Below, one piece after another: positions 19,218 to 47,645 of a DNA stretch of 64,000 nt (the stretch's first letter is position 1; every line of letters starts with the position of its first letter). The stretch covers positions 21,726 to 85,725 of IMG/VR virus record IMGVR_UViG_3300035156_000038; one strand, given 5' to 3'. Both the position numbers and the translations under genes were made by a program. The stretch comes from a virus (lineage: Duplodnaviria > Heunggongvirae > Uroviricota > Caudoviricetes). A model generated the notes under the pieces. It made no database searches and was not told the DNA's origin. It worked only from the letters and a program-made list of their open reading frames with translations.

Positions 19218-19649
19218 TTAATTATTAACCAACACCATAAACTTCTCACGATCAGCGACCAGTTGGAGTTGCCGTTGACGTTCTTCTTCAGCTTCTACTC
19301 GCTCTTTGTACTTCAAGTAGCAGCTAACCATGTAAGACTTCTCATCTGGTGTCATCCAGCCTGCTTGACAGGTGTAGACGGTTTCAAAGTCCCAGCCAGT
19401 GTAGACGGTGAAGACCACTTGCAAAGCCTTAGCTTTGTGTGTGAAGACTTCAATACCCACGTGGCTACGCGGTCTACTGCGATCTTCCAAGACCCATTCA
19501 CCAGTCTCCAAGATGGATTTAGCAAGGCTGATAACAGGTTCACCGACTACGGGGTTCTTTGCTTGAAGGCTTTCGGCAACCATATCCGAAATACTTTCCG
19601 TAGGCTTCTTATCTTCACCGAAGAAGTTCTTCAGCCATTTAAGTATCAT
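19218..19649 (-). CDS. hypothetical protein
   Basis: 143 aa; overlaps the upstream macro gene start (coupled). Confidence 0.45.
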   Translation of the reverse strand: MILKWLKNFFGEDKKPTESISDMVAESLQAKNPVVGEPVISLAKSILETGEWVLEDRSRPRSHVGIEVFTHKAKALQVVFTVYTGWDFETVYTCQAGWMTPDEKSYMVSCYLKYKERVEAEEERQRQLQLVADREKFMVLVNN

Positions 19650-20122
19650 TGTTCATCCTCTTTGATCCACAGGGTAGCGTTGTGAGCATGGAAGACAGCT
19701 TCGAAGATAGCGATAAGACGCTTCCTGTCACCGTTTGCCAGCCCACCGCCAATCAGCGGAAGGTGGATCGGGATTGCTGGCATGTATTGATCTACATACT
19801 TCAGCACGTTTTGCAGGCCACAGATAACCGCATCGTAGTCCACGTACACCTTGTAGGGATTACGTCCGTACTCTGCTTGGGTAATCACGTTAGCAATGCA
19901 GCGATCAGCGTAGGGGTTTTCCCAGATGATAGCTTGGCCCAGCTTCAGACCGTAGCGACGTTCAGCCTGCTTGTACACAAGGTACGCTTCCGGGTGAAGG
20001 TCTTTGATGATCTTCGCCACGCCACTACCCATCACGCCCTTGGCGTTACAGCCGTGGAGAACCAACGTACGCTTACCAGCCGTGGCGTTGAACAGGTCGC
20101 CAATTTGAATGTCAAGTGCCAT
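19646..20122 (-). CDS. macrodomain protein (ADP-ribose binding/processing)
   Basis: 158 aa; LVLHGCNAKGVMGSGVAKII… matches the macro-domain Gly-rich ADP-ribose-binding loop (NAAN…GGGV). Confidence 0.7.
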   Translation of the reverse strand: MALDIQIGDLFNATAGKRTLVLHGCNAKGVMGSGVAKIIKDLHPEAYLVYKQAERRYGLKLGQAIIWENPYADRCIANVITQAEYGRNPYKVYVDYDAVICGLQNVLKYVDQYMPAIPIHLPLIGGGLANGDRKRLIAIFEAVFHAHNATLWIKEDEQ

Positions 20123-20484: not shown

Positions 20485-21870
20485 TTACACAATGTAGAAA
20501 CGCTTGCCGTATGCAGCGGTAGGGCCTGCATCGTACTGCTTCTTACCTTGCACGGTAGCTTGTGCACGGGCCATATCGCGGGTGTCGTAGAACGCAGCAT
20601 TCAGGGGTGCAACGTGGTAGCGAACACGGCCACCATCGGTAGGCAGGATCGGGCGTGGTGCACCGAAGAAGCCAGCAGGAGCAGCAGTTTTAGCAATCAC
20701 TTGCGCTTGGGTCGGGACAGCTTTCTTAGCAACCTTTTGTGGGTGCGGGGTAGGCTTGTTCGACACAGGCACGGCAGGCAGTTCGATTTCAGCAGGCTTC
20801 TTCGGTTGCAGGTACGCCAGATCAGCTTCGGTAAATGGCACGCCGATAGCTTCCCAGTAAACCACACCAGTGTCGCCCACCAGATGACGATTCACCGACG
20901 ACGACTGGATAAAGATGTCGAAGTTGCCGTGGTCGCCCGGATGCAGACGAACGTTGCTATCGGTAGGCAGGCCCAGCATTTGACGCGGGATGTCCTTACC
21001 TTGCTTGTCCTTACCGCCGTAAATCTTCTTGGTAGTACGGTCACGAACCAGAATCATCTTCGAAGGCTGCACACGTGCTTCCGTCTTGGTAAGCTGGTAG
21101 AAAGCAGCGCCCTTCAGGTATTGCATACGCTTAGTCAGGATGAAGTCACGGATTTCCAGCTTTTCACCAACAGCCAACGAAGGCACAACGTACAGCGAAA
21201 CGTCTTTGGTAACGTCAACCAGCGACGAAGTATCCACTGCACCAGCTTGAGCGTAGAACACGGTAGACGACTTCTGACCAGTTGCACGGGCAGCGTAGAA
21301 GTTGTTGAACGCCGCTTCGGTAGCCTGAGTCGAGTTAGCGAAGCCTGCTGCGGTTTGATCCCATGCTTGGATGTTACCCCGTGGGATGCCGATGCCAGCC
21401 AGCGTATCAACTTCGTTAGCAGGAACGCGGAACACGAAAGTCCAACGACCGTCACGCTGCGTCAGTTCGCGGATAGCTGCTGCTACGTCCGCACCACCGC
21501 CCTGAGTGTCACCGCCGTCAGTGGTCATCAGTACGACGAACGACACGTTAGGATCGGCGTAGTCAGGCATCGACTTAGCGAGCTTGATGATTTCCAGCAC
21601 GGTACGGAACAGCGGAGTGCCGCCCTGTGCAGGCCAGTTAGCCATAGGTTGCAGAACGTGCGGGTTCGAATTCACGATTTGACGGGTGATGCCACCGGGG
21701 CCGATACCGAAGCCGAACACCGAAACGATGGTGTCTTGCATTTGCTTGGTAGAAGCTTCCTTGACTGCCTTGATGTTTGCATTGAAGTCACGCTTCGCTG
21801 CGCTGGTCAGGCCGTGCATCGAACCCGAGTGATCGTTACCGAAAAAGATGTAATTCTTGATATGCGACAT
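20485..21870 (-). CDS. von Willebrand factor A (vWA) domain protein
   Basis: N-terminal IFFGNDHSGSM…T…TDGGD resembles a MIDAS motif (DxSxS…T…D); 461 aa; RBS AAAGGAGAAATACAATATG. Confidence 0.6.
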   Translation of the reverse strand: MSHIKNYIFFGNDHSGSMHGLTSAAKRDFNANIKAVKEASTKQMQDTIVSVFGFGIGPGGITRQIVNSNPHVLQPMANWPAQGGTPLFRTVLEIIKLAKSMPDYADPNVSFVVLMTTDGGDTQGGGADVAAAIRELTQRDGRWTFVFRVPANEVDTLAGIGIPRGNIQAWDQTAAGFANSTQATEAAFNNFYAARATGQKSSTVFYAQAGAVDTSSLVDVTKDVSLYVVPSLAVGEKLEIRDFILTKRMQYLKGAAFYQLTKTEARVQPSKMILVRDRTTKKIYGGKDKQGKDIPRQMLGLPTDSNVRLHPGDHGNFDIFIQSSSVNRHLVGDTGVVYWEAIGVPFTEADLAYLQPKKPAEIELPAVPVSNKPTPHPQKVAKKAVPTQAQVIAKTAAPAGFFGAPRPILPTDGGRVRYHVAPLNAAFYDTRDMARAQATVQGKKQYDAGPTAAYGKRFYIV

Positions 21871-21970: not shown

Positions 21971-23602
21971 TTATCCGTGAAGACGTTGCTTGATTTCTGC
22001 GAAGGTTTGGAAGTTAACAACCTTACCATCACGGAACACTTCTTTAAGCTGACCGCTTTCTTCTTGGAACGGACGCTGGCAATCGTACAGCACGAAGTTG
22101 TCACCTTCCTTTTCCACACGCAGCAGGCCCTTAGCGGACTTCTTCGAACCCGAGTCGGTAGCCGGGTCTTTCTGGATGTCGCGTTCTTCGCCGTTGACGA
22201 TGCCCCACGTAGCCTTGACGGCCATGCCGAACGTGTCACGGGTGATGTACTGGTAGGTGTAGCTACCAATGCCGAACACTACGTTGCCAGCCGAGAAGCC
22301 TTTATCCATCAAGCGTTGCAGGATGGTTTCACAGCGTTCCAGCGTAATGCTATCGCCGTAGATCAGGCCCACGTGACGGTCGATGGTCTTGAAACCCTTG
22401 TCGGTCACAGTGCCGCCGAACTCATCCCAGAGGCATTCGACAGCGCCCTTGACTACGTGTTCTGGAATCTCTTTGCCTAGACGCAGCGTATCGCTAGAGC
22501 TAGCATCGAATTCGTAGAACTTACCTTCGTACTTAACTGCATCGTAGTCATCTTCGAATTCCCATGCAACACACTCGCCCACGTGCAGGTCAGTGATTTC
22601 TTTGACCTTCAGACCAGTAAGAATCTTGACAGGATCGCCCGAGTCAGGACGGAACACAACCTTGGCGTTACCAAACGCGTCTTCCTTACGGGCCAGAATT
22701 TCGGCCTTAAGCAGCTTGGTAAAGCGGGTGATGACAGCCCAGAAGTCCCACGTATCCGACACGATGGACACGATACCCGATGGGTAGGTTTCGGTAATCA
22801 GACGGCGGAAAGTACCCACTTCGTCTTCCTTACCACCCATGCACATTACTGAGTGTTCTGTTGCCGGGACGCTACCAGCTACAAGTTCCTTCGTAACGTC
22901 AGCACCGTAGTAGTCTTCCAGATAGTCGATTGCCAACAGGGCATCGGTTCCCGAACCAGCGCACATCAGGTGGGCTGCACCGCACTTAGCGGAGTCAGCA
23001 CGCCCCGACATACCACGCATCGAGAAGTCATGCGCTTGCCAGTTGACGAACATTGGGTCGCTACCAGTCAGCGTAGCATACTTGTTAATCAGGCGGCGGT
23101 ATTCGAACGCGATGGTGCCAACGGTGATCGGCTTCCACAGTTCGCACGAAAGAACCGTTTCCAGATAGTTAGTAAGCCAGAAGAAGGCCGGGTGCGTGTT
23201 ACGGATCGTCAGGAACGGAACCTTGATGTCCACACGCGAACCTTCATCCAGAGCCTTGATGACGATAGGCAGGTAGCCAAGATCGTGCAGGGCTGCGATG
23301 TGGTCAACTCGTACCGAGTCTGGGCCAAGGAAGGCGTCACAACGGCGCTTGTATTCTGCCACTACTTCAGCTTTAGGACGCTGGAAGAAGCCTTCGTTCC
23401 ATTCTTCGATCAGGAATTCCATCGTGAAGCCTTGCAGGCCAGTGAACACGACTTTACCATCAAAGGTAGAAGGCATACGGGCGTGGGTCAGGCTACGAGC
23501 CGTGAAGTTCGAATAGACGTACTCCGTACCTTTCGGGTATTGGTCGATGTGGCCGAGCTTGTAGCTATCGAGGGCCAGATGTGGGCGACGTTTCATTATC
23601 AC
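21971..23602 (-). CDS. nicotinamide phosphoribosyltransferase-family protein (NadV/Namat-like)
   Basis: 543 aa; N-terminal 'LDSYKLGH…YPKGTEYVYSNFTAR' is the NAMPT signature (DSYK); length fits. Confidence 0.8.
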   Translation of the reverse strand: MIMKRRPHLALDSYKLGHIDQYPKGTEYVYSNFTARSLTHARMPSTFDGKVVFTGLQGFTMEFLIEEWNEGFFQRPKAEVVAEYKRRCDAFLGPDSVRVDHIAALHDLGYLPIVIKALDEGSRVDIKVPFLTIRNTHPAFFWLTNYLETVLSCELWKPITVGTIAFEYRRLINKYATLTGSDPMFVNWQAHDFSMRGMSGRADSAKCGAAHLMCAGSGTDALLAIDYLEDYYGADVTKELVAGSVPATEHSVMCMGGKEDEVGTFRRLITETYPSGIVSIVSDTWDFWAVITRFTKLLKAEILARKEDAFGNAKVVFRPDSGDPVKILTGLKVKEITDLHVGECVAWEFEDDYDAVKYEGKFYEFDASSSDTLRLGKEIPEHVVKGAVECLWDEFGGTVTDKGFKTIDRHVGLIYGDSITLERCETILQRLMDKGFSAGNVVFGIGSYTYQYITRDTFGMAVKATWGIVNGEERDIQKDPATDSGSKKSAKGLLRVEKEGDNFVLYDCQRPFQEESGQLKEVFRDGKVVNFQTFAEIKQRLHG

Positions 23603-24015
23603 TCTCCTTGTTCAACTGCTGCGATTTGTGCTTGGATACGGGCGATAGCTAACGCCTTATCCGTCATGGCGCGGCCACTTCCGTAGGAGCCTGAACCGAG
23701 ACTTTCATCGCGGCGACCGTCTGCGTAGGTTGCAAAGAGGCTGTACCACGCGTCAGGCCCGAACATTTTATCGGTGTCGGCTTCACGTACGTCAATGTCC
23801 AGACCGTTTATTTCAACCATGAAGGTATTTGTGCTCCACGGAATCAGCGCCATACCTTGTGATTGGAAGTGTGGCAAGGAAGCGGCAAGGCCAGCCGTGC
23901 AGAACAACGTGCCGCACGGTTCCTTCCGGGCATACGAAGACAGGTCAAAGTTCGCTTCCGGCTGGGCTTGCACAGCGCCCAGCAGGGTAAACAGATTTTT
24001 CAAAACTTGGTTCAT
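23599..24015 (-). CDS. small protein, paralog A (PCGTLFCxAGLAA motif), coupled to the NAMPT-like gene
   Basis: 138 aa; RBS AAGGAGAAGAAAATG; stop overlaps the Namat start; paralog of 25299..25694. Confidence 0.55.
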   Translation of the reverse strand: MNQVLKNLFTLLGAVQAQPEANFDLSSYARKEPCGTLFCTAGLAASLPHFQSQGMALIPWSTNTFMVEINGLDIDVREADTDKMFGPDAWYSLFATYADGRRDESLGSGSYGSGRAMTDKALAIARIQAQIAAVEQGE

Positions 24016-24041
24016 TTTCTTCTCCTTATATGTGTCGTTAA

Positions 24042-24437
24042 TTAACGGCGGCGCTTCGACAGGCTCACGCGGCTGCTGGATTTGCTGCTGCTAGCGAAGC
24101 GGCTGGTGAAGGTTGCTGGACGGCTACGGTTGATAACCGTCTTCTGAACCACCGTCTTGTTGATGATGGTTTGACGCACTGGTGCACGGCCATAGCCACG
24201 GTCGTAGTCGGAACCACGCGAGCCACCACCGCTAAGTGCCATGCCAGCCATAGCGCCCAGAGCCATGCTACCCGCGTCGATGCCGCCGCTTTCTTGCTGG
24301 ACAACGACAGGCTGTGCCGGGGCTTGTTGAGCCGGGGCGGCGATAACTTGTGGCTGTTGGATTGGTTGGGGTGCAGGGCCGCAAGCCGACAGGGCAGCAG
24401 CGAACAGGGTAGCGATAGCGATTTTCGATTTGAACAT
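24042..24437 (-). CDS. lipoprotein (Gly/Ala/Pro-rich, basic C-terminus)
   Basis: Signal peptide plus lipobox LSAC; 131 aa; RBS AAGGAGAATCAAAATG. Confidence 0.55.
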   Translation of the reverse strand: MFKSKIAIATLFAAALSACGPAPQPIQQPQVIAAPAQQAPAQPVVVQQESGGIDAGSMALGAMAGMALSGGGSRGSDYDRGYGRAPVRQTIINKTVVQKTVINRSRPATFTSRFASSSKSSSRVSLSKRRR

Positions 24438-24465
24438 TTTGATTCTCCTTGGTTAAGTTGGTTGG

Positions 24466-25293
24466 TTAAACTACTACTACTTTGCCGCTTGCTACGGCTG
24501 CTTTGCCAGTAGCGCCGACAGGATTAGAAGTATATAAGCTATCTACCAATCCGTCAAACACTTTTTCACCAGCCGAGAAGATGCCGTGGGTTACATACAA
24601 CATAACTTTGCCAGTGGTCAGCTTGCGTAGCTCCTTAGCTAACTCCGTGAAGGTACGGCCACCGTCGCAGATGTCGTCCACGATCAGGAAGTCCTTATCT
24701 CCTACAGGCTCGCTGTACACTACGGTTCCCGTAATCTTACCCGACAGTACATCACGGGTCTTATCTGCACGAACAACGTTAGCATAACCGTACTCTTTGG
24801 CTATTGCAAGCACTTTCTTGTTAGCGCCTGCGTCTGGGCTAACTAGGATAGTTTGCCTGTTAGCGTGGTGGCTCATACCGAGGAAGTCGAACTTCGAATC
24901 CACGTGCATCAGGTTATCCAGTAGTGCAACGCCGACATCCGAGTGGATATTAAAGCACTGAACGGCACTGAACTTAAGGCCGTTGATGAAGTCGCAAGCA
25001 ACCTTCACAGACAGGCTTTCACCACGGGCGCACACACGGTCTTGGCGAGCGTATGGAAGGTACGGCATCTGCAATTCAATCAGGATGTCGTGCCCGAGTT
25101 CCCGGCGTACTGCGTCCACCAGCAGTGCCAGATTAAACAGGTCGTCGTTACCTTCAAATTCCAGCGTGATTTCTGCGAATGACGGCTGGTGTTCCACGGC
25201 TTCGGCGTCGATTTTGATAAACGTTTCCCCGGCAGGGAAGCGGCGAATCACGATAGATACATCCTTGTTGTCTACGGACAGTTGCAGGCTCAT
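24466..25293 (-). CDS. ribose-phosphate pyrophosphokinase-family protein (PRPP synthetase / Adps-like)
   Basis: PYLPYARQDR and LIVDDICDGGRTF are the PRS catalytic-flag and PRPP-binding motifs; 275 aa. Confidence 0.8.
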   Translation of the reverse strand: MSLQLSVDNKDVSIVIRRFPAGETFIKIDAEAVEHQPSFAEITLEFEGNDDLFNLALLVDAVRRELGHDILIELQMPYLPYARQDRVCARGESLSVKVACDFINGLKFSAVQCFNIHSDVGVALLDNLMHVDSKFDFLGMSHHANRQTILVSPDAGANKKVLAIAKEYGYANVVRADKTRDVLSGKITGTVVYSEPVGDKDFLIVDDICDGGRTFTELAKELRKLTTGKVMLYVTHGIFSAGEKVFDGLVDSLYTSNPVGATGKAAVASGKVVVV

Positions 25294-25298
25294 GTTTA

Positions 25299-25694
25299 TT
25301 ACTCCTTGGTTGTTTGTTCATTGGCTTTGTATTCCGCGATACGGTACTTCAGACGGGCGATAGCAAGCTGCTTATGGGTCAGTTTATCCCAGCCCAAATC
25401 TTCATCCAACCCGCCGCCACCCGCGTACTGGAACAGTTCGCTCATGGAGTTGGGGCCGAACAGGGGATCGCCACCACCGTCCCACACGGAAGTGCCGTTA
25501 AGGCTTGGGTCGCCGTCCCAGACCATGCCTAGTGCTTGGAATCGTGGCATGTTAGCAGCCAGCCCCGCTACACAGAATAGTGTACCGCAGGGCCTTTCCA
25601 TACGGAAGTTGTCAAGGTTGAACAGGCGTTCTGGCTGTGCTTCGACAGCAGCTAGCAGGGCTTCCAGATTTTCGATAATTGCTTGGTTACTCAT
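25299..25694 (-). CDS. small protein, paralog B (PCGTLFCxAGLAA motif), coupled to the PRS-like gene
   Basis: Start set at MSNQAI (RBS GAAGGAGAAGAACATG); 131 aa; shares LxAVEAQPE…PCGTLFCxAGLAA…P.FQ..GM with 23599..24015. Confidence 0.55.
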   Translation of the reverse strand: MSNQAIIENLEALLAAVEAQPERLFNLDNFRMERPCGTLFCVAGLAANMPRFQALGMVWDGDPSLNGTSVWDGGGDPLFGPNSMSELFQYAGGGGLDEDLGWDKLTHKQLAIARLKYRIAEYKANEQTTKE

Positions 25695-25821
25695 GTTCTT
25701 CTCCTTCGGGTTCGCCCGAGAACGGGCAGTTGGTTGGCCCCGGACAAGTGCCGGGCAGTTCATCGCCGCACACGCAGCGGGTTAGCTTCTTACGTGGGCG
25801 AACTTCGTAGTCGTTCGGGTC

Positions 25822-25995
25822 GTCAAGGGTGGGTGGCTGCGAGAACACCGAGCGCCCCTCCAAGCAACATGCAAATTGCACACATGGTACGTGCTTCTTG
25901 CGACCAGTATTGAATACTCATCGTCACATTGCCAAAAGAAAACAGCAGGAAGATAAGGGCTGCACCGCCGAAGAAGCCAATCAGGTTCTTAGTCA
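25822..25995 (-). CDS. small membrane protein (~57 aa)
   Basis: Sub-threshold ORF MTKNLIGFFGGAALIFLLF… with RBS AAGGAGTAACGAATG, downstream of the 26028–26056 promoter. Approximate. Confidence 0.3.
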
Positions 25996-26027
25996 TTCGT
26001 TACTCCTTAGTTACTTAAGATAAAGCT

Positions 26028-26056
26028 AGTATGCCTGCTTCCTACTTAGCTGTCAA
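26028..26056 (-). promoter_or_regulatory. sigma70-type promoter (leftward)
   Basis: Minus strand: TTGACA - 17 - CATACT. Confidence 0.5.
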
Positions 26057-26524
26057 GCTGTTTGGCAAAATAATTTCAATGCCAAGACGTTCCAGTTTGT
26101 CGTATAGGTCAACGCTAATCTTCCGCACAGGGAACACGATACTGCGCTTGCCGAGGCTTGCCATGTAGGTAGCCATATCCAAGCTACCCGTGCTTACTCC
26201 GTCCCACACAACAAGGGCTGCATCTGCGAAGTCGCCCATATCGTGATTACGTTGGATGCCAGCCATGACGTTGTACTTACCCCGGCTGTTCTTCTTAACA
26301 ACAGCGCCCGGAGCCTTGATGTTGTCCCAGTCAGCCGGGAAGTCGTGAATCTTCAAGCCAGCTTTCTTGGCAATCTCTTCGCCCAGCGTATCTACGCCCT
26401 TGGCCTTGCCGCTGACAACTTCGATAGCCTTGCCGTGTTCGGCCCAGAGGCCCGATTCAATAAGCGCACGCTTAACGGTGTCGTAGCTAGTGATGCTGCG
26501 GCTACCCGCGATGATAAGTTTCAT
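26042..26524 (-). CDS. SLOG-fold protein, DUF2493-like (predicted nucleotide/ligand binding)
   Basis: Start set at MKLIIAGSR (GGAG RBS); MKLIIAGSRS…VVSGKAKGVD…G pattern fits DUF2493/SLOG. Confidence 0.55.
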   Translation of the reverse strand: MKLIIAGSRSITSYDTVKRALIESGLWAEHGKAIEVVSGKAKGVDTLGEEIAKKAGLKIHDFPADWDNIKAPGAVVKKNSRGKYNVMAGIQRNHDMGDFADAALVVWDGVSTGSLDMATYMASLGKRSIVFPVRKISVDLYDKLERLGIEIILPNSLTAK

Positions 26525-26525
26525 G

Positions 26526-26765
26526 TTAGCTCCAAACGAAGTACAGTGCAACGAGTGCCACTACCAGAGTGATAGCACGATGCAGGGTTGATGTTTCTTT
26601 GTCATTGATGGGACAGAACGCGTACAGCATTCCGAAGCTGGTAATAAAGTAGGTAGCTACGATAGCCCCAGCGATTTTGAGTATTGCTTCCATTATTGTT
26701 CCTTTGCCCACTTGATAGCAGCCACAACGACATCGCCGTGGCAAGCCTTCGGATAGCAATAACAC
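26526..26765 (-). CDS. small membrane protein
   Basis: 79 aa, two hydrophobic helices. Confidence 0.4.
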   Translation of the reverse strand: MLLLSEGLPRRCRCGCYQVGKGTIMEAILKIAGAIVATYFITSFGMLYAFCPINDKETSTLHRAITLVVALVALYFVWS

Positions 26766-26986
26766 GCAAGCCGCTTCCCGTCCAGAGAACGTAAGTAGTC
26801 AAGCGTGATCTTGCCACGTTTTATTTCTCGCCATAGATACCTACGGTAGAGTTCGATAGCCACTTGCCGGGTAATCCCCGCCTCTTCGTTGATAGCGTAG
26901 ATATTCCCTAACGGCGATCCCCGGCCTATGTAGACATCATACTCTTGGTAGTGCTTGTTAACTACGGTTGCCACGAAGTTCCTCAC
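26693..26986 (-). CDS. DUF4326-like protein
   Basis: 97 aa; YIGRGS…GN…CYC.P..CHGD pattern as in DUF4326; overlaps neighbours. Confidence 0.45.
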   Translation of the reverse strand: MRNFVATVVNKHYQEYDVYIGRGSPLGNIYAINEEAGITRQVAIELYRRYLWREIKRGKITLDYLRSLDGKRLACYCYPKACHGDVVVAAIKWAKEQ

Positions 26987-27398
26987 GAATCTCCATTAGC
27001 AGCTTACCTAGCCAGTTCTGGCCCTCGCCGTAGCAAACACCCCAGAAGGTATCATACCACGTATTTTCTTCGATTAGCTCACGCTCTCCGGTAGCTAGCA
27101 AAGCAACGCGCAAGTAACCCCAGCTAAACTTCTCGCGTAGCAGGCCCCTCATAACATCCAGCTTGATAGCTTCCCAGTCAGGCCGTAGCGTGATTTGCTT
27201 GCCCATGCGTTTAGCTTGGCCGGGAGTTGTGCACAGCCGAATAGCTTCGCGGAATTCCTTCACCGTTGTTTTGGCAGCTTGGTAGGCATGTTCCACGGTG
27301 GGGTACATCACGCCTTCAAGCTCCACTTCGCAGAGCGTGAAGTTGGATAGCCAGCGGTAGTCACCGTGGAAGCCGCTGATAGGTAGCAGCTTGCTCAT
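26958..27398 (-). CDS. NADAR-domain protein (YbiA-like; ADP-ribose/NAD-related N-glycosidase family)
   Basis: FHGDYRWLSNF…YPTVEHAYQAAK matches the NADAR/DUF1768 core motif (Y..LSNF…EH.YQA.K). Confidence 0.7.
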   Translation of the reverse strand: MSKLLPISGFHGDYRWLSNFTLCEVELEGVMYPTVEHAYQAAKTTVKEFREAIRLCTTPGQAKRMGKQITLRPDWEAIKLDVMRGLLREKFSWGYLRVALLATGERELIEENTWYDTFWGVCYGEGQNWLGKLLMEIREELRGNRS

Positions 27399-27574
27399 AT
27401 TTTCTCCTTAGTCGATAAACTTCTTGTAGTGTGCTTCGAACATCTTGTCCATCTGAATCAGGATCAAGTCGTATTTGTCTGGCTTACCCTTGAACAGCTT
27501 ACGCCGTGCACGGATAGCTTCGTAGTCGGCTAGGACAAGTTTGTAGTGTTCCTCGCCCAGTGTGTCACGGTTCT

Positions 27575-27760
27575 TCAACGGTCGCCCCGGTTATCCCAGA
27601 AGTAATCACAGGTTTGCACTTCCTTGCCGTCTTCTTCCGCTACGTTAAGCGGCACAACAGCGAAGAACGACTGCCTGTAGGGATGGGCGTTAGCCGTGTA
27701 GCGGTAGCACTTCGATTTCTTCTTGCAAGCGTCGCCACAGCACATGGTAATGTCAGCCAT
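27575..27760 (-). CDS. small Cys-rich protein
   Basis: 61 aa with a CC…C…C cluster; RBS AAGGAGAAAACAAATG. Confidence 0.4.
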   Translation of the reverse strand: MADITMCCGDACKKKSKCYRYTANAHPYRQSFFAVVPLNVAEEDGKEVQTCDYFWDNRGDR

Positions 27761-27771
27761 TTGTTTTCTCC

Positions 27772-28110
27772 TTAAAAGTTCATTTCATGGAAGTATTGTT
27801 CTTCCGCTTCTACGTTCATAGCACACAACAGCGAACCATCCGGCAAAGGAATGTCGTTGATCCTGCGTGCGCAATCGGTGCAGTACCACGCACGCGAACC
27901 CTTGTTCCACCAGTAAGCGCCGGGACGCTGGCAGCGGGTAACGTTGCAGGAACCGAGCCGTTGGCCTTTGTCGGCCTTATTAGGGCCTTCCCAGCCATAA
28001 CGCCCGTAGTGGCCCTCTTGCGGCACTTCCACGGTCGCAGGCTGGGGTGGGTTGTGGCGAGTATTGAAGTTGCCTTGGTTGACCCGCTTGTGCATTCTGG
28101 ATAGCTTCAT
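27772..28110 (-). CDS. Cys-rich putative zinc-binding protein
   Basis: Start moved to MKLSRMHK; two C…C pairs (CNVTRC, CTDC). Confidence 0.4.
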   Translation of the reverse strand: MKLSRMHKRVNQGNFNTRHNPPQPATVEVPQEGHYGRYGWEGPNKADKGQRLGSCNVTRCQRPGAYWWNKGSRAWYCTDCARRINDIPLPDGSLLCAMNVEAEEQYFHEMNF

Positions 28111-28180
28111 AAAACCCCCGTTGAAATAGAATAGGGCCATTCTACCGAGGTAGAACAGCCCTGTCTACTACTTTCGTAGC

Positions 28181-28438
28181 TTACTGCTTAAAAATGTCCA
28201 GCGTGCCTTTAGGCAGCTTCAGTATGTCCATCAGGCTACCGCCAAGGTATTCCAGATCAGGCGTGTACACCTGTGGCACGGTACGATGCCCGAGCGTCTT
28301 AAACGCGTGCATACCACTTTCGTCTTCGTCAATCTTTACTACCTTGTGGGCGATGCCCAGTCGTTCGAAGTGCTGGATAACTGCAACGCAACCAGCGCAG
28401 CCATTACCCGAGAACACCGTCAAGTGGTTCGTTACCAT
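28181..28438 (-). CDS. nrdH: glutaredoxin-like protein (NrdH-like)
   Basis: 85 aa; redox CAGC near N-term, …RTVPQVY…YLGG pattern; adjacent to RNR. Confidence 0.6.
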   Translation of the reverse strand: MVTNHLTVFSGNGCAGCVAVIQHFERLGIAHKVVKIDEDESGMHAFKTLGHRTVPQVYTPDLEYLGGSLMDILKLPKGTLDIFKQ

Positions 28439-28592
28439 TATTGTTTACTCCGTATAAAATTGTTCGTTTGATGTGGTCTGGTACAGCCACAACGCCTAGC
28501 TTCACCGCTTCTGCCCATACGTCCACCACACCGTAGCTAGGATGGTTGTAAAGGTTAAGAGGCGGGAACTTGTCATTCCACGCCTCGCCCAT
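28404..28592 (-). CDS. hypothetical small protein
   Basis: 62 aa; bridges RNR and glutaredoxin genes. Confidence 0.3.
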   Translation of the reverse strand: MGEAWNDKFPPLNLYNHPSYGVVDVWAEAVKLGVVAVPDHIKRTILYGVNNNGNEPLDGVLG

Positions 28593-30472
28593 TACTGGGT
28601 CACTTCACATTGACCGCCAGCACACGCAGCTTCCATCGTGTGTGCCGTGTTGTCGTCTTCTTCGTTGACCAACGTAAGGTCGAAGTTACCTTGTGCTTCA
28701 ATGTAGGCCATTAGACCTTCGTACAGGTCTTCAGAGCAGTCTTCAAACGGAGCCTGAACGTAGGTGCCACCGTCATACGGAAGCACGCTAATACCGTTGT
28801 ATTCGTCGCGGTACTTCCACATCCAATCGCCGCAAGCTTCCCACTCATCGCCCTTCAGGCTAATAGTGCAGGAAATGTTGTGACGTTGCACGCCACGGTT
28901 GTGTCCCGGCTTAATCCACTCTTGGTTAAAGCGGCGAACACGCTCTAGCAAGTCCATGAAGCTTTCCGTACGAAGAATACTACCTTCCGGGGCTTTCTGG
29001 GGGAACGACATCACAGCTTCAAGGTGCGGCTTAAACTTGCAGTCTTCCACCAGCAGCGGGAAGTTCTTCAGCATGTAGAAGTACAGTGCTTCGTTCTTAC
29101 CAACGCGCATACGGCGAATGTAGAAGTCATTGTGCCAAGCGTGCACACCCGACGAACTACCAACCACAATCGAAGCAGTACCTTCCGGCTTCATCAACGA
29201 AGTACGGGCAGCAGTGTTGACGCCAATGATAGCAGCTACACGGGCGTTCTCATCAACCACGTGGCTAGCGGCTTCTTCCCAGTCCAGCGGCAGAGCCTTA
29301 CCCGAGCCAATACCAGTGCACGACACACCAATCAACGAGTCGTCTTCAGTCACTTCACGCCAGATGCTACGCAGGTAGTGGAAGTTCGTGAAGCCAGCTT
29401 GCAACGTACCAATGAAGGTAGCAGCACGCGCACGCAGGTTCAATTCCTTTTGCGTACCAACATCGTCGCCGTTGATCGTCGTTAGGTTACAGAACGAGTA
29501 CATTTGCAGCGTAGCTTCCACGCATGGATTCGACAGGATGTTACGGTCGTTAGTCCAGTACACGCCCGGCTCACCCGCGTTCGAATCTTCTACACGCTTC
29601 CAGATAGCTTTAAACATCGCTTCGTCAATCGTACCACGCAGCAGCACAACTGAGTTGTTAGCACGGCCACGTTGAGGGTTCAGTTCCCACCACGCACCGC
29701 TCTTGCAGGTAATCATATCCAGATCGTCAGGGCTGAAGAACGCGATCATAGCAGCACGGCGAATACCACCCGACAAGACAGCATCGGCAATGTGGCATTG
29801 AATGTCGTGACACTCAAGCGGGGTCAGCTTACGTCCAATAGCACCGTTAAGCACCGTACGGATGTTCTCGATACAGATACGCAGCGGTTCTGGCCCCGGA
29901 GCTTTACCGCCAGCGGTAATCAGGCGTGCACCCTTCGGGCGAATATCGCCGTAGTCCATATCAGGATCAGCACGGCCTTCGAAGTAGGCACGTACAACCA
30001 CCTTAACTGCGTCTGCCCAGCCTTCGATACTGTCACCGACAACGAAGCGACGGCGACGGCTTGTAGGCCCCTTAACGGCTGGCAGTTGTTCCACGTGATG
30101 CTGCTGCACGCTGTAACCTACGCCCGAGCCACCCAGCAGCAGGAACATGGTTTCAGAGAACGAATGCAGGCTGTCTACTGGCAAGCAGCAGCAGTTGAAC
30201 ATACGCGTGTTGTTCATTTCGATTGGCTTACCGCCAAACTGCATCGAACGCATGGAAGGCAGCACCTTCTTGGTCTTCACGTACGTGTTAAATACGTAGG
30301 CAATTTCTTCGGCCAGCATCGGGTACTTAGCCATGTGCATACGCATGTTGCGCTCACAGATTTCTTCCCATGTTTCCCGGCGTCCTAGCTCTGGGATGTA
30401 CTTAGCATACTTGTTAAAGACCACAACATCGCTGAGAATCTTCTGCGATTTGTTCATCGGGGATTTACTCAT
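28592..30472 (-). CDS. nrdJ: ribonucleotide reductase catalytic subunit, monomeric class II-like (no NrdB in window)
   Basis: 626 aa; FNCCCLPVDSLHSFSETMFLLLGGSGVGYS aligns with the RNR Cys225/finger-loop region (…SCVL.ECGDSL…GIGIN); no beta-subunit gene nearby. Confidence 0.65.
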   Translation of the reverse strand: MSKSPMNKSQKILSDVVVFNKYAKYIPELGRRETWEEICERNMRMHMAKYPMLAEEIAYVFNTYVKTKKVLPSMRSMQFGGKPIEMNNTRMFNCCCLPVDSLHSFSETMFLLLGGSGVGYSVQQHHVEQLPAVKGPTSRRRRFVVGDSIEGWADAVKVVVRAYFEGRADPDMDYGDIRPKGARLITAGGKAPGPEPLRICIENIRTVLNGAIGRKLTPLECHDIQCHIADAVLSGGIRRAAMIAFFSPDDLDMITCKSGAWWELNPQRGRANNSVVLLRGTIDEAMFKAIWKRVEDSNAGEPGVYWTNDRNILSNPCVEATLQMYSFCNLTTINGDDVGTQKELNLRARAATFIGTLQAGFTNFHYLRSIWREVTEDDSLIGVSCTGIGSGKALPLDWEEAASHVVDENARVAAIIGVNTAARTSLMKPEGTASIVVGSSSGVHAWHNDFYIRRMRVGKNEALYFYMLKNFPLLVEDCKFKPHLEAVMSFPQKAPEGSILRTESFMDLLERVRRFNQEWIKPGHNRGVQRHNISCTISLKGDEWEACGDWMWKYRDEYNGISVLPYDGGTYVQAPFEDCSEDLYEGLMAYIEAQGNFDLTLVNEEDDNTAHTMEAACAGGQCEVTQ

Positions 30473-30488
30473 TATTACAATTATTCCT

Positions 30489-30518
30489 TCTGAAAATGAA
30501 AACGGGGCCGAAGCCCCG
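30489..30518 (-). terminator. hairpin + U-tract in RNR leader (terminator/attenuator)
   Basis: ACGGGGCCGAAGCCCCGT followed on the minus strand by UUUCAUUUUC; lies between the promoter and the RNR RBS. Confidence 0.5.
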
Positions 30519-39577: not shown

Positions 39578-39949
39578 TTATTCGAACAGGCGTTCGACTT
39601 CATTGTTAAGATACTCATACTGCTTCGTTTCCTGTACTAGCTTGGAAGCGTTGTAGGTAGAGTATCCATTTTCATGCAACCAGTTTAGCAGCTTCACTGC
39701 GTTAACTTTATGCACATTCGTTGATAGCGTCTTCGCTACTATGTGTCCTTTAGGAAACCCTCTAGTGAACGTCACCCAGAACGGGAATTCCATCAGCACC
39801 GACACGGGTTCACCGCTACGGTATTCCATGCCACGGTTGCGCATCACAACTTCGGTAGCAGCAAGGCGCATCTGTTCGTAAATGGCCTTGCTTGCCTTCC
39901 TTGTTGCTTTCTTCTGCGCTCTAGTGGCCTTTACACGCCGCTCAGCCAT
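39578..39949 (-). CDS. hypothetical basic protein
   Basis: Start set at MAERRVKA (TAATG overlap with the upstream membrane-protein gene). Confidence 0.4.
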   Translation of the reverse strand: MAERRVKATRAQKKATRKASKAIYEQMRLAATEVVMRNRGMEYRSGEPVSVLMEFPFWVTFTRGFPKGHIVAKTLSTNVHKVNAVKLLNWLHENGYSTYNASKLVQETKQYEYLNNEVERLFE

Positions 39950-40140
39950 TACGACCAGAGTTGGATCATGCCACAGGTGAAGATGATAGCCGTGGAAGCC
40001 GCTAGAAGCGCCCCGCCAACCCACACGACCTTAGCCCAGTTAGAACCGTAACCTTTGGCCGTGTCTACCGTGATACCTGTAAACACAAAGATTGCTGCCA
40101 GTGCCAGAAGCGTAACGCCCACCTTCATTGCCAGTTCCAT
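39949..40140 (-). CDS. small membrane protein
   Basis: 63 aa, two TM helices; RBS AAGGGGAGTAAACATG. Confidence 0.4.
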   Translation of the reverse strand: MELAMKVGVTLLALAAIFVFTGITVDTAKGYGSNWAKVVWVGGALLAASTAIIFTCGMIQLWS

Positions 40141-46373: not shown

Positions 46374-47645
46374 TCAACCGCCTACCGTGTAGTGTTTCGG
46401 GTTCTTACCTTCGTGGACGGCTGCAATCTGCGGCACAAGTGCCTTCAGTGCATCACGCTCTTTCAGGTAGCCAGCCATTTTCAGGCGGTCGTCAATCAGC
46501 ATTCCAGCAGCACGCGCTTCCACAAGGATAGCCACGTTGGCAAGAACACCGCCAAGGTGCGGCACACCGTCAGCCGGGTCAAATTCTTCGCCTGCTTCCC
46601 ACGAAGCAAGGTGGCGTTTGATAGCCGCGATGTAGATGCTAGCTTCCACCGGAGTGTTAGCGAAGTTAGCCTTGCCGTACTTCAGCGAACCGTTGTACAG
46701 GGCCAGTGAACCGTAAGCCGAAGCAAGGTTGCTCCACATATTCAGCGGAATCGAAGCCAGCCCGTATTGCTTCTTCGGGTTGGTGTCGGGCGGCGAATCT
46801 TCGTCGTGGTGGACGAACCCACGGTCAGGGTATGCCTCCTTCGCTGGCGTAACAACCGGGCAAACACGGTAGGCAACGATGTCATTTTGTGCACCGTCAT
46901 GCTGCCAGAATTGGCTAGAAGCATCACGTGCGCTTGCCTCAAACTCGTTAGCACGCACATTGAAAGCTGGACGTTCGCCGTCACGATAGCGAACATCCAC
47001 ACGGGTGCCGTCTGGTACAGGGCATTCACCGCCGTTCCAGCTAATGAAGCCGTCCTTACCCACTTGCACAGTTTCAGTGCCGCCAGCAGCTTCCACCACA
47101 TCAGCCACCATAGCTTGCAGGGTGACAGGCTCTTGCACAGGGCGGTAGTAGGCGATGCAGCCAAGGCTCGCACCAACGCCCCACCACCAAGTATCGGCTT
47201 CATGTCTTGCGTTGGTCTGTCCCCGGTTAAACATCACTTCAACCTTACCTTCGATGGTAGGTTGCACGCCAGTATTCTTGATCCAGCCTTCAGCGAGCAT
47301 GACCGCTTCGGCACGCTTAGCAACAGCACGCTTGCGTTGATCCTTCTTACGTGCCTTGCGGATTGCCTTGACAGCATTGACGGCTTCACGCAAACCGAAG
47401 AACGTAAATTCGCCAGTCTTAGGCTCCCACCGCTGTTCTTGTGGGCAGTTGGTGATGCGGCAATCTTCGTCAACCATCAGGAAAGAGTTACCGTTGCTGT
47501 AGTCAAACTTGGTGCGGCAACCCGAAGCCCATTTGAACCCGAGCTTGAACATCAGTTCTTGTGCACGATGGGATTGTTCAAGGTTTTTAGTACGAATAAA
47601 TCCACCCTTGAACTTGTCGGTGATGTGGTTTGTTGCAAAACTCAT
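46374..47645 (-). CDS. hypothetical protein (C-terminal domain possibly dNTP-pyrophosphohydrolase-like)
   Basis: 423 aa; conserved-looking C-terminal block NPKKQYGL…; not recognised with confidence. Confidence 0.4.
   Translation of the reverse strand: MSFATNHITDKFKGGFIRTKNLEQSHRAQELMFKLGFKWASGCRTKFDYSNGNSFLMVDEDCRITNCPQEQRWEPKTGEFTFFGLREAVNAVKAIRKARKKDQRKRAVAKRAEAVMLAEGWIKNTGVQPTIEGKVEVMFNRGQTNARHEADTWWWGVGASLGCIAYYRPVQEPVTLQAMVADVVEAAGGTETVQVGKDGFISWNGGECPVPDGTRVDVRYRDGERPAFNVRANEFEASARDASSQFWQHDGAQNDIVAYRVCPVVTPAKEAYPDRGFVHHDEDSPPDTNPKKQYGLASIPLNMWSNLASAYGSLALYNGSLKYGKANFANTPVEASIYIAAIKRHLASWEAGEEFDPADGVPHLGGVLANVAILVEARAAGMLIDDRLKMAGYLKERDALKALVPQIAAVHEGKNPKHYTVGG

Follow-up and report, generated by a model that had tools for sequence, protein, structure and literature searches.

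A split NADAR and DUF4326 gene pair beside NARP1-type genes in an uncultured tailed phage is a candidate ADP-ribose-processing cassette

What might a tailed phage gain from two small overlapping genes, one for a NADAR protein and one for a DUF4326 protein, set close to genes of NAD+ metabolism? We addressed this question in a 64,000-nucleotide stretch of viral DNA (hereafter the window; positions 21,726 to 85,725 of IMG/VR record IMGVR_UViG_3300035156_000038), in which a preliminary description, made from the sequence alone, had proposed the two open reading frames (ORFs) as an anti-DarT module. Both were found at the coordinates it gave, on the minus strand. Comparison with related sequences indicates that the pair is best explained as a split-gene version of a widespread phage module for ADP-ribose processing, composed of NADAR and DUF4326 with or without SLOG. 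It belongs to a wider NAD+/ADP-ribose cluster of NADAR, DUF4326, SLOG and Macro genes together with those of NARP1. Both protein families have already been published, as have the NADAR-DUF4326 pairing (2022) and the anti-DarT1 role of phage NADARs (2023-24), and the locus is a new example; the association of NADAR, SLOG and DUF4326 was described by comparative genomics (Iyer, Burroughs, Anantharaman & Aravind 2022, Viruses 14:1977, PMC9503650).

The NADAR gene (26958..27398, minus strand) encodes 146 amino acids, a YbiA-type core without an N-terminal extension. The protein matched PF08719 with 94.3 bits (E 1.2e-26, cut-off 35.1) over profile positions 9-163 of 163, as well as phrog_1017 (E 2e-42) and the NCBIfam model TIGR02464 (88.5 bits, cut-off 73.7). 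Its best match in the PDB was Escherichia coli YbiA (2b3w, E 7.5e-25), followed by the NADAR of P. nicotianae (8bau, E 2.4e-6). The AlphaFold2 (AF2) model, with a predicted local distance difference test score (pLDDT) of 96.5 and a first strand that starts at residue 7, showed a YbiA-like alpha+beta fold in Foldseek comparisons, with a template modelling score (TM) of 0.87 to 2b3w (E 1e-10) and of 0.82 to 8bau. Residues E36, K43, E110, D116 and W119, which are invariant in 56 homologues, align in HMMER comparisons with 8bau and 2b3w to E43, K50, E125, D130 and W133 of the P. nicotianae protein. When ADP-ribose is bound to the latter, these five residues contact its pyrophosphate and distal ribose, and guanine de-ADP-ribosylation depends on their equivalents (PMC11543638). 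Because E110, in the segment LIEEN, places a glutamate at the E125 position, the window NADAR is assigned to the YbiA subfamily. Sequence and model together come close to showing that this is a competent-looking minimal YbiA-type NADAR, predicted to act as an ADP-ribosyl N-glycohydrolase. Profile score, fold and active-site residues all bear out the identity first proposed from the motifs FHGDYRWLSNF and EHAYQAAK, both of which are present.

The adjoining gene encodes a DUF4326 protein of 93 amino acids when read from a GTG at 26974 (26693..26974, minus strand), or of 97 from an alternative upstream GTG at 26986. It had been called DUF4326-like, and PF14216 confirmed the label with 75.6 bits (E 4.9e-21, cut-off 25, profile positions 4-81 of 82); phrog_464 was matched with an E of 5e-36. 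For both proteins of the pair the profile scores are far beyond chance. An alignment of 66 DUF4326 sequences contained 14 invariant columns (Y15, G17, R18, G23, N24, R36, L64, L69, C73, P75, C78, H79, G80 and D81), and all of them, along with the motifs YIGRG...GN and CxPxxCHGD, are found in the window protein; YIGRGS and CYCYPKACHGD, quoted earlier, are there as well. In the AF2 model (pLDDT 96.7) the C73-x5-H79 loop joins the beta-strand at 68-71 to the C-terminal helix, and its predicted geometry recalls the P-loops (CX5R) of Cys-phosphatases and rhodaneses, with His in place of Arg. Fold searches with the model yielded no convincing match to any solved fold. DUF4326 has been placed in the rhodanese-phosphatase superfamily and predicted to remove ribose-linked phosphates from ADP-ribose (Iyer et al., PMC9503650), and our fold searches neither reproduced nor refuted this prediction. 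A total of 2,128 deposited phage records (for example, NC_014662 138954-139184) contain the family, many of them from T4-like phages, where it is annotated as nrdA.1 or adjoins ribonucleotide reductase (RNR) genes; in one locus (L077) it overlaps the end of the RNR gene.

Are the two domains made as one product or as two? On the minus strand the NADAR frame ends with ATG GAG ATT CGT GAG GAA CTT CGT GGC AAC CGT AGT TAA, and the overlapping DUF4326 frame reads GTG GCA ACC GTA GTT AAC. It is the 3' end of NADAR that lies over the 5' end of DUF4326, and not, as had been stated, the 5' region of NADAR that is overlapped. By homology, DUF4326 starts at the second GTG (26974): relatives have ATG there (M-C-x-V-V-N), and gene callers choose this start, and hence 93 amino acids, on a 99%-identical contig. 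With the start at 26974 and not at 26986, the overlap measures 17 nt (26958..26974, minus strand) and not 29, and the NADAR TAA falls inside the conserved Val-Val-Asn codons of DUF4326. A putative Shine-Dalgarno element, GAGGAA (26979..26984, minus strand), precedes GTG 26974 by 4-6 nt and falls within the coding part of NADAR. Read backwards from the first GTG (26986), the DUF4326 frame runs for only three codons before it meets a TAA, and neither a slippery heptamer nor a homopolymer occurs in 26958..26998, the permissible region of about 40 nt. The 17-nt overlap recurs in two relatives (L001 and L002) and an overlap of 10 nt in a third (L095), and the split is kept in independently assembled contigs whose proteins are 70-77% identical to those of the window. 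In the window itself, one inserted or deleted nucleotide shortly before GTG 26974 would be enough to join the genes in frame. Given that DUF4326 has its own Shine-Dalgarno element and GTG, that its frame stops early, that no slip site is available and that the split is kept in relatives, the arrangement is attributed neither to frameshifting nor to an assembly artefact. By these sequence criteria NADAR and DUF4326 are two separate, translationally coupled genes, and the ribosomal frameshifting suggested in the preliminary description finds no foothold.

The same description had left it open whether DUF4326 is a partner of NADAR or half of a split fusion, and relatives give both ideas substance, the second in an evolutionary sense. 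We searched for fusions with P0128, a DUF4326-NADAR fusion from a syntenic relative (L092 7001-7708), and examined the best 120 matches. Fusions accounted for 35 of them: 20 had the order NADAR-DUF4326, with in-frame linkers of 3-15 amino acids, 13 had the order DUF4326-NADAR and two were DUF4326-NADAR-SLOG triple fusions (P0255 and P0259, 361 and 398 amino acids). P0272 is another natural fusion, and DUF4326-SLOG fusions are present in four loci (L057, L060, L063 and L080). To follow the pair within its own lineage, we defined the latter by the presence of SLOG just upstream of Adps, the Prs-like gene of NARP1, so that these two genes are constant by definition; it comprises 14 distinct members, phages of about 90 kb. 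Six members carry both NADAR and DUF4326, six carry neither and two carry a single one (Fisher p 0.03, not corrected for phylogeny). Namat, the NAMPT-like gene of NARP1, is present in all, and Macro in every member whose fetched locus reaches that far. Within this lineage the pair is an optional addition directly ahead of an invariant SLOG-Adps-Namat-Macro set, in other words a NARP1 locus for NAD+ reconstitution with a phosphatase, and the slot upstream of SLOG behaves like a variable accessory region.

Three independent lines of evidence, namely fusions, joint presence or absence and conserved coupling, show that NADAR and DUF4326 are functionally linked. A general adjacency of the two is ruled out: of 80 DUF4326 loci, 2 had a NADAR no more than 8 kb away, which makes the two genes rare neighbours outside the lineage and the linkage facultative. 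Sequence comparison therefore nearly establishes a functional link between NADAR and DUF4326 that is real but facultative, with a looser one to SLOG. Around the DUF4326 gene of Vibrio phage Gary, the model phage for the NARP1-AP system described below, we found no annotated NARP1, NADAR or Macro gene within 12 kb, in an annotation that consists almost entirely of 'hypothetical protein'. Single-gene arrangements were also seen in the lineage. DUF4326 is kept in L004 (5604-6016) and L096, with dissimilar ORFs of 98 and 39 amino acids in the NADAR slot, and in L103 (7937-8853) NADAR abuts SLOG, with no DUF4326.

The phage itself is an uncultured tailed phage of about 91 kb. Profile searches of the window proteins identified capsid, tail, DnaB, PolA and RNR genes, and a 91,295-bp metagenomic contig carries copies of the NADAR and DUF4326 proteins that are 99-100% identical. 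A megablast search of 24000-30500 against 50,697 deposited phage genomes returned no nucleotide-level match, and no cultured phage has a class II RNR protein more than 61% identical to that of the window. Genes around the pair run on one strand with short gaps in the order class II RNR, glutaredoxin, three small ORFs, NADAR, DUF4326, a 55-amino-acid ORF, SLOG/YAcAr, a 154-amino-acid ORF, the Prs-like Adps, two further ORFs, the NAMPT-like Namat, a 461-amino-acid ORF and a Macro 'phosphatase'. NADAR, SLOG, Adps, Namat and Macro all fall within 8 kb. The earlier placement of the pair immediately beside the SLOG and NARP genes is thus right as to a same-strand cluster, but the 55-amino-acid ORF comes before SLOG, and Adps and Namat are further downstream. 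A scan for promoters and terminators in 19-31.5 kb gave results not above shuffled expectation, and no operon boundaries were taken from it. The ORFs adjacent to NADAR encode 56-122 amino acids and are without an ADP-ribosyltransferase (ART) signature.

Downstream of DUF4326, the hydrophobic 55-amino-acid ORF (26526..26693, minus strand) fills the gap to SLOG, and its start overlaps the DUF4326 stop (TAATG). In relatives this slot is occupied by dissimilar small ORFs of 49-99 amino acids; as its sequence is not conserved, we left it out of the module. The SLOG protein (26042..26524, minus strand, 160 amino acids; YAcAr/YpsA-related) matched PF10686 with 38.4 bits (cut-off 28.2), and elsewhere SLOG, as the module's third domain, is found joined either to DUF4326 alone or to both DUF4326 and NADAR. 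NARP1 consists of Adps, an ADP-ribose pyrophosphate synthetase, and Namat, which together reconstitute NAD+ from ADP-ribose (ADPR). The Adps candidate is the Prs-like protein at 24466..25293 (minus strand; PF13793; phrog_619, E 2e-78; TIGR01251, 116.6 bits), and the Namat candidate is the NAMPT-like protein at 21971..23602 (minus strand; PF04095, 127.8 bits, plus NAMPT_N; NF006629, 553 bits). A Prs-like and a NAMPT-like gene thus share one phage locus, as in NARP1, with a predicted ADPR-pyrophosphate chemistry, and of 80 related viral loci with Adps, 78 also have Namat. A survey of 80 Adps-centred viral loci showed, at a distance of up to 10 kb, Macro in 25, SLOG in 11, NADAR in 6 and DUF4326 in 3.

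The Macro gene (19646..20122, minus strand, 158 amino acids) lies about 1.8 kb downstream of Namat, with the 461-amino-acid gene in between. Its product matched phrog_335 'phosphatase' with 111 bits and a lineage hidden Markov model with 183 bits; the match to Pfam Macro, at 17.8 bits, was below cut-off. In the PDB it matched DarG macrodomains (5m3i, E 2.4e-5; 5m31, E 3e-4) and, more weakly, yeast Poa1p (6lft, E 0.026). In the system termed NARP1-AP, a Poa1p-like Macro phosphatase, Adpp, feeds ADPR to NARP1 and counters aRES (10.64898/2026.01.28.702374). From these matches the window protein could be an Adpp-type phosphatase of ADPR-1''-phosphate (ADPR-1''P), in which case the locus would be of the NARP1-AP kind, or else a thymidine de-ADP-ribosylase similar to DarG.

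Several other window genes deserve mention. Two paralogous ORFs, at 25299-25763 (minus strand, 154 amino acids) and 23599-24015 (minus strand, 138 amino acids), are 40% identical (E 2e-26), have no Pfam or PHROG match and each lie directly upstream of one NARP1 gene, Adps and Namat, respectively; their positional counterparts in relatives are labelled DUF6197 or DUF8296. A protein of 423 amino acids (46374-47645, minus strand) carries an N-terminal dATP/dGTP diphosphohydrolase domain (PF18909, 61 bits) of the MazZ/DatZ-type family, and no PurZ-like family was among the window's top Pfam matches. ThyX and a 2OG-Fe(II) oxygenase are also encoded, so that the phage may modify bases or act on the nucleotide pool in some way. 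The window further encodes an RNA ligase (PF09414 with a PHA02142 OB domain), its ORF not localized. Neither an ART nor Tpt1/KptA appeared among 25 of the 33 matching Pfam families, those listed for the 63 window ORFs; a 148-amino-acid ORF (39578..40024, minus strand) gave a KptA_kDCL match of 20 bits, which is sub-threshold, lacks PDB or PHROG backing and is probably due to chance.

How could the pair work in this setting? It is best read as an optional two-enzyme cassette that deconjugates ADP-ribose and either feeds or accompanies NAD+ reconstitution. By homology, NADAR would hydrolyse ADP-ribose from the exocyclic amine of guanine (and cytosine) in DNA or RNA. The adducts would be the work of DarT1-type or pierisin-type ADP-ribosyltransferases, and their hydrolysis would free ADP-ribose while shielding phage nucleic acid from base ADP-ribosylation. 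DUF4326, which is probably catalytic, would act on the ADP-ribose-derived substrate of NADAR or on its product, and its chemistry is perhaps a phosphoester step at the modelled strand-Cx5H-helix loop. Adps and Namat could then turn the freed ADP-ribose, the NARP1 substrate, back into NAD+. For this composite as a whole, in which the bases relieved would above all be those with DarT1-type guanine adducts, we consider the chances about even. An anti-DarT1 role is plausible because the window NADAR is 46% identical to the experimentally validated NADAR of phage Bas32. An anti-DarT2 role, also envisaged in the preliminary description, is not to be expected by analogy, as tested NADARs were all inactive on thymidine-ADPr (PMC11125620, PMC11543638). 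The label 'anti-DarT module' is too narrow for the pair, which is part of the wider NAD+/ADP-ribose cluster, and nothing ties DUF4326 specifically to DarT.

Several points weigh against this composite. The activity of NADAR is a prediction, and an anti-DarT1 role presupposes a host with DarT1. In one study, YbiA and T4 NADAR cleaved guanosine-ADPr in vitro yet did not rescue cells from DarT1 toxicity (PMC11125620); competence in vitro is therefore no guarantee of an antitoxin-like role. The window NADAR is without the basic N-terminal extension that has been proposed to bind single-stranded DNA in DarT1-linked NADARs (PMC11543638). A role of DUF4326 as ADPR-1''P phosphatase would be redundant, as the locus already has a Macro phosphatase. 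Phage NADARs have been argued to target mainly soluble ADP-ribose derivatives (Iyer et al., PMC9503650). Finally, besides the rarity of NADAR near DUF4326 outside the lineage, only a minority of Adps loci carry NADAR (6/80) or DUF4326 (3/80).

The cassette might act not on DNA adducts but on soluble ADP-ribose derivatives, either immune signals or toxic metabolites, such as cyclic ADP-ribose isomers, ADPR-phosphates or the NADP-derived 2'-phospho-ADPR. Cleavage of N-glycosidic bonds would then fall to NADAR and SLOG, and removal of a ribose-linked phosphate to DUF4326, with the outcome that signals are destroyed, ADPR is passed to NARP1, or both. A prediction to this effect has been published for phage NADAR, SLOG and DUF4326 (PMC9503650), and it suits a pair that adjoins SLOG, Adps, Namat and Macro, the DUF4326-SLOG and triple fusions, and a NADAR that scores above the cut-off of TIGR02464, a model for a small-molecule N-glycosidase. 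It also has precedents in two enzymes that feed NARP1, namely Adpp (10.64898/2026.01.28.702374) and RyDEP, a glycosidase in mycobacteriophage NARP1 loci that acts on Thoeris signals and thereby supplies ADPR (10.64898/2026.05.28.727677). However, no NADAR has yet been shown to use a soluble ADP-ribose substrate, the known Thoeris signals contain O-glycosidic ribose-ribose bonds that call for RyDEP and not for N-glycosidases, and the experimentally supported phenotypes of phage NADARs have so far all been directed against DarTG1 (PMC11257639). We regard action on soluble derivatives as a tentative possibility, somewhat doubtful as things stand. Small-molecule chemistry of another kind is suggested by the name of TIGR02464, 'riboflavin biosynthesis intermediates N-glycosidase', by the 42% identity to E. 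coli YbiA and by the same annotation of homologues in many phage records, under which NADAR would be a metabolic YbiA orthologue, a damage-control N-glycosidase for riboflavin intermediates carried as an auxiliary metabolic gene with no link to defence. There are no riboflavin genes nearby, though; the neighbours are NAD+/ADP-ribose enzymes, the fusion partners are DUF4326 and SLOG, YbiA itself cleaves guanosine-ADPr (PMC11125620), and presence/absence variation in the lineage is typical of accessory counter-defence genes, all of which makes a riboflavin role very improbable.

A link to RNA is a further alternative, in which the cassette would clear by-products of RNA repair or of NAD-dependent RNA-end processing (ADP-ribose cyclic phosphate, Appr>p, or ADPR-1''P, of the Tpt1/KptA type) or would confer immunity to an ADP-ribosyltransferase encoded by the phage itself. 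Connections between NADAR and RNA repair have been proposed (PMC9503650), myxobacteria have a YbiA-YarT toxin-antitoxin pair (PMC11125620) and the window does contain an RNA ligase domain. This reading is nevertheless unlikely. The 25 of 33 matching Pfam families listed for the window ORFs included neither Tpt1/KptA nor an ART, the lone KptA_kDCL match remained below cut-off and had no PDB or PHROG support, the short ORFs next to NADAR showed no ART signature, and NADARs were inactive on ADP-ribose at phosphate ends (PMC11833690). One might also ask whether the split exists at all, since in-frame NADAR-DUF4326 fusions with short linkers are found in nature and the window sequence is one nucleotide away from such a fusion; a single product could then arise by programmed +1/-2 frameshifting, or the split could be a sequencing or assembly error. 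The features of the junction described above speak clearly against it, as the DUF4326 frame is open for only three codons above GTG 26986, nothing slippery is available, DUF4326 has its own Shine-Dalgarno element and a start where relatives have ATG, and the split recurs in independent contigs at 70-77% identity. A fused product is accordingly the least credible of the alternatives.

Phage NADARs have recently been established as a means of counter-defence against DarT1 DNA ADP-ribosylation, and NARP1 operons recruit accessory enzymes. Current concepts are unchanged by the locus described here, which is a convenient compact system for assigning DUF4326 its first biochemical function, with natural variants at hand in which the pair is split, fused in either order, triple-fused or absent. 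It could also be used to test whether de-ADP-ribosylation of bases is coupled to NAD+ recycling.

Among the closest known counterparts of the window NADAR is NADAR-Bas32 of the T5-like phages, which neutralizes DarT1 and with which phages grow again on DarTG1, though not on DarTG2 (PMC11257639). The T5-like gene that we compared, from EC105, is 99.6% identical in nucleotides to that of IrisVonRoten, which is Bas32, and the identity with the window protein noted above extends over 142 residues (E 2e-40). Both are stand-alone phage-encoded minimal cores of about 146-149 amino acids, set among nucleotide-metabolism genes, and share the Glu-type active-site segment LIE-x-NTW-x-DT-x-WG. In EC105, unlike in the window, no DUF4326 follows the gene and neither NARP1 nor SLOG adjoins it, and anti-DarTG1 activity has been demonstrated for NADAR-Bas32, whereas for the window protein it is presumed. 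E. coli YbiA (2B3W) has the same Glu at the subfamily-defining position and is likewise matched by TIGR02464, but it is chromosomal, with a role as riboflavin-intermediate N-glycosidase, and ybiA shares an operon under LexA control with dinG, rhlE and ybiB (PMC11125620), whereas the gene in the window belongs to a phage and is coupled with DUF4326. Every NADAR class tested, YbiA included, hydrolyses guanosine-ADPr in vitro (PMC11125620); NADARs also act on RNA (PMC11833690), and those of the YbiA type on cytidine-ADPr (PMC12945103). T4 gp30.3 (AdfN) and the DarT1-linked antitoxins (DarG1/BC4488) belong to the same superfamily and presumably share guanine de-ADP-ribosylation. AdfN is only 21% identical to the window NADAR and has His where the latter has Glu, with no His aligned in the segment. 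In DarT1-linked NADARs the catalytic position holds Asp, the N terminus is extended by a basic stretch and darT is a neighbour (PMC11543638). The window protein differs in each respect: it is Glu-type, has no extension and is flanked by small ORFs and DUF4326, and no ART family is among the Pfam families listed for the window ORFs.

At the level of the locus, the window resembles the extended NARP1 operons, NARP1-AP and those with RyDEP, in that accessory genes for ADP-ribose processing stand beside Adps and Namat. NADAR, DUF4326 and SLOG are not mentioned in the texts of the two papers that describe them (10.64898/2026.01.28.702374 and 10.64898/2026.05.28.727677). The window too has a Macro 'phosphatase', downstream of Namat, a candidate counterpart of Adpp whose PDB matches are stronger to DarG than to Poa1p. 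The gene pair itself has its closest counterpart in the published NADAR-DUF4326(-SLOG) fusions of DNA viruses (PMC9503650), which contain the same three domains. In the window these are separate polypeptides, encoded in the order NADAR, DUF4326, (55-amino-acid ORF), SLOG, and the first two are joined by their 17-nt overlap.

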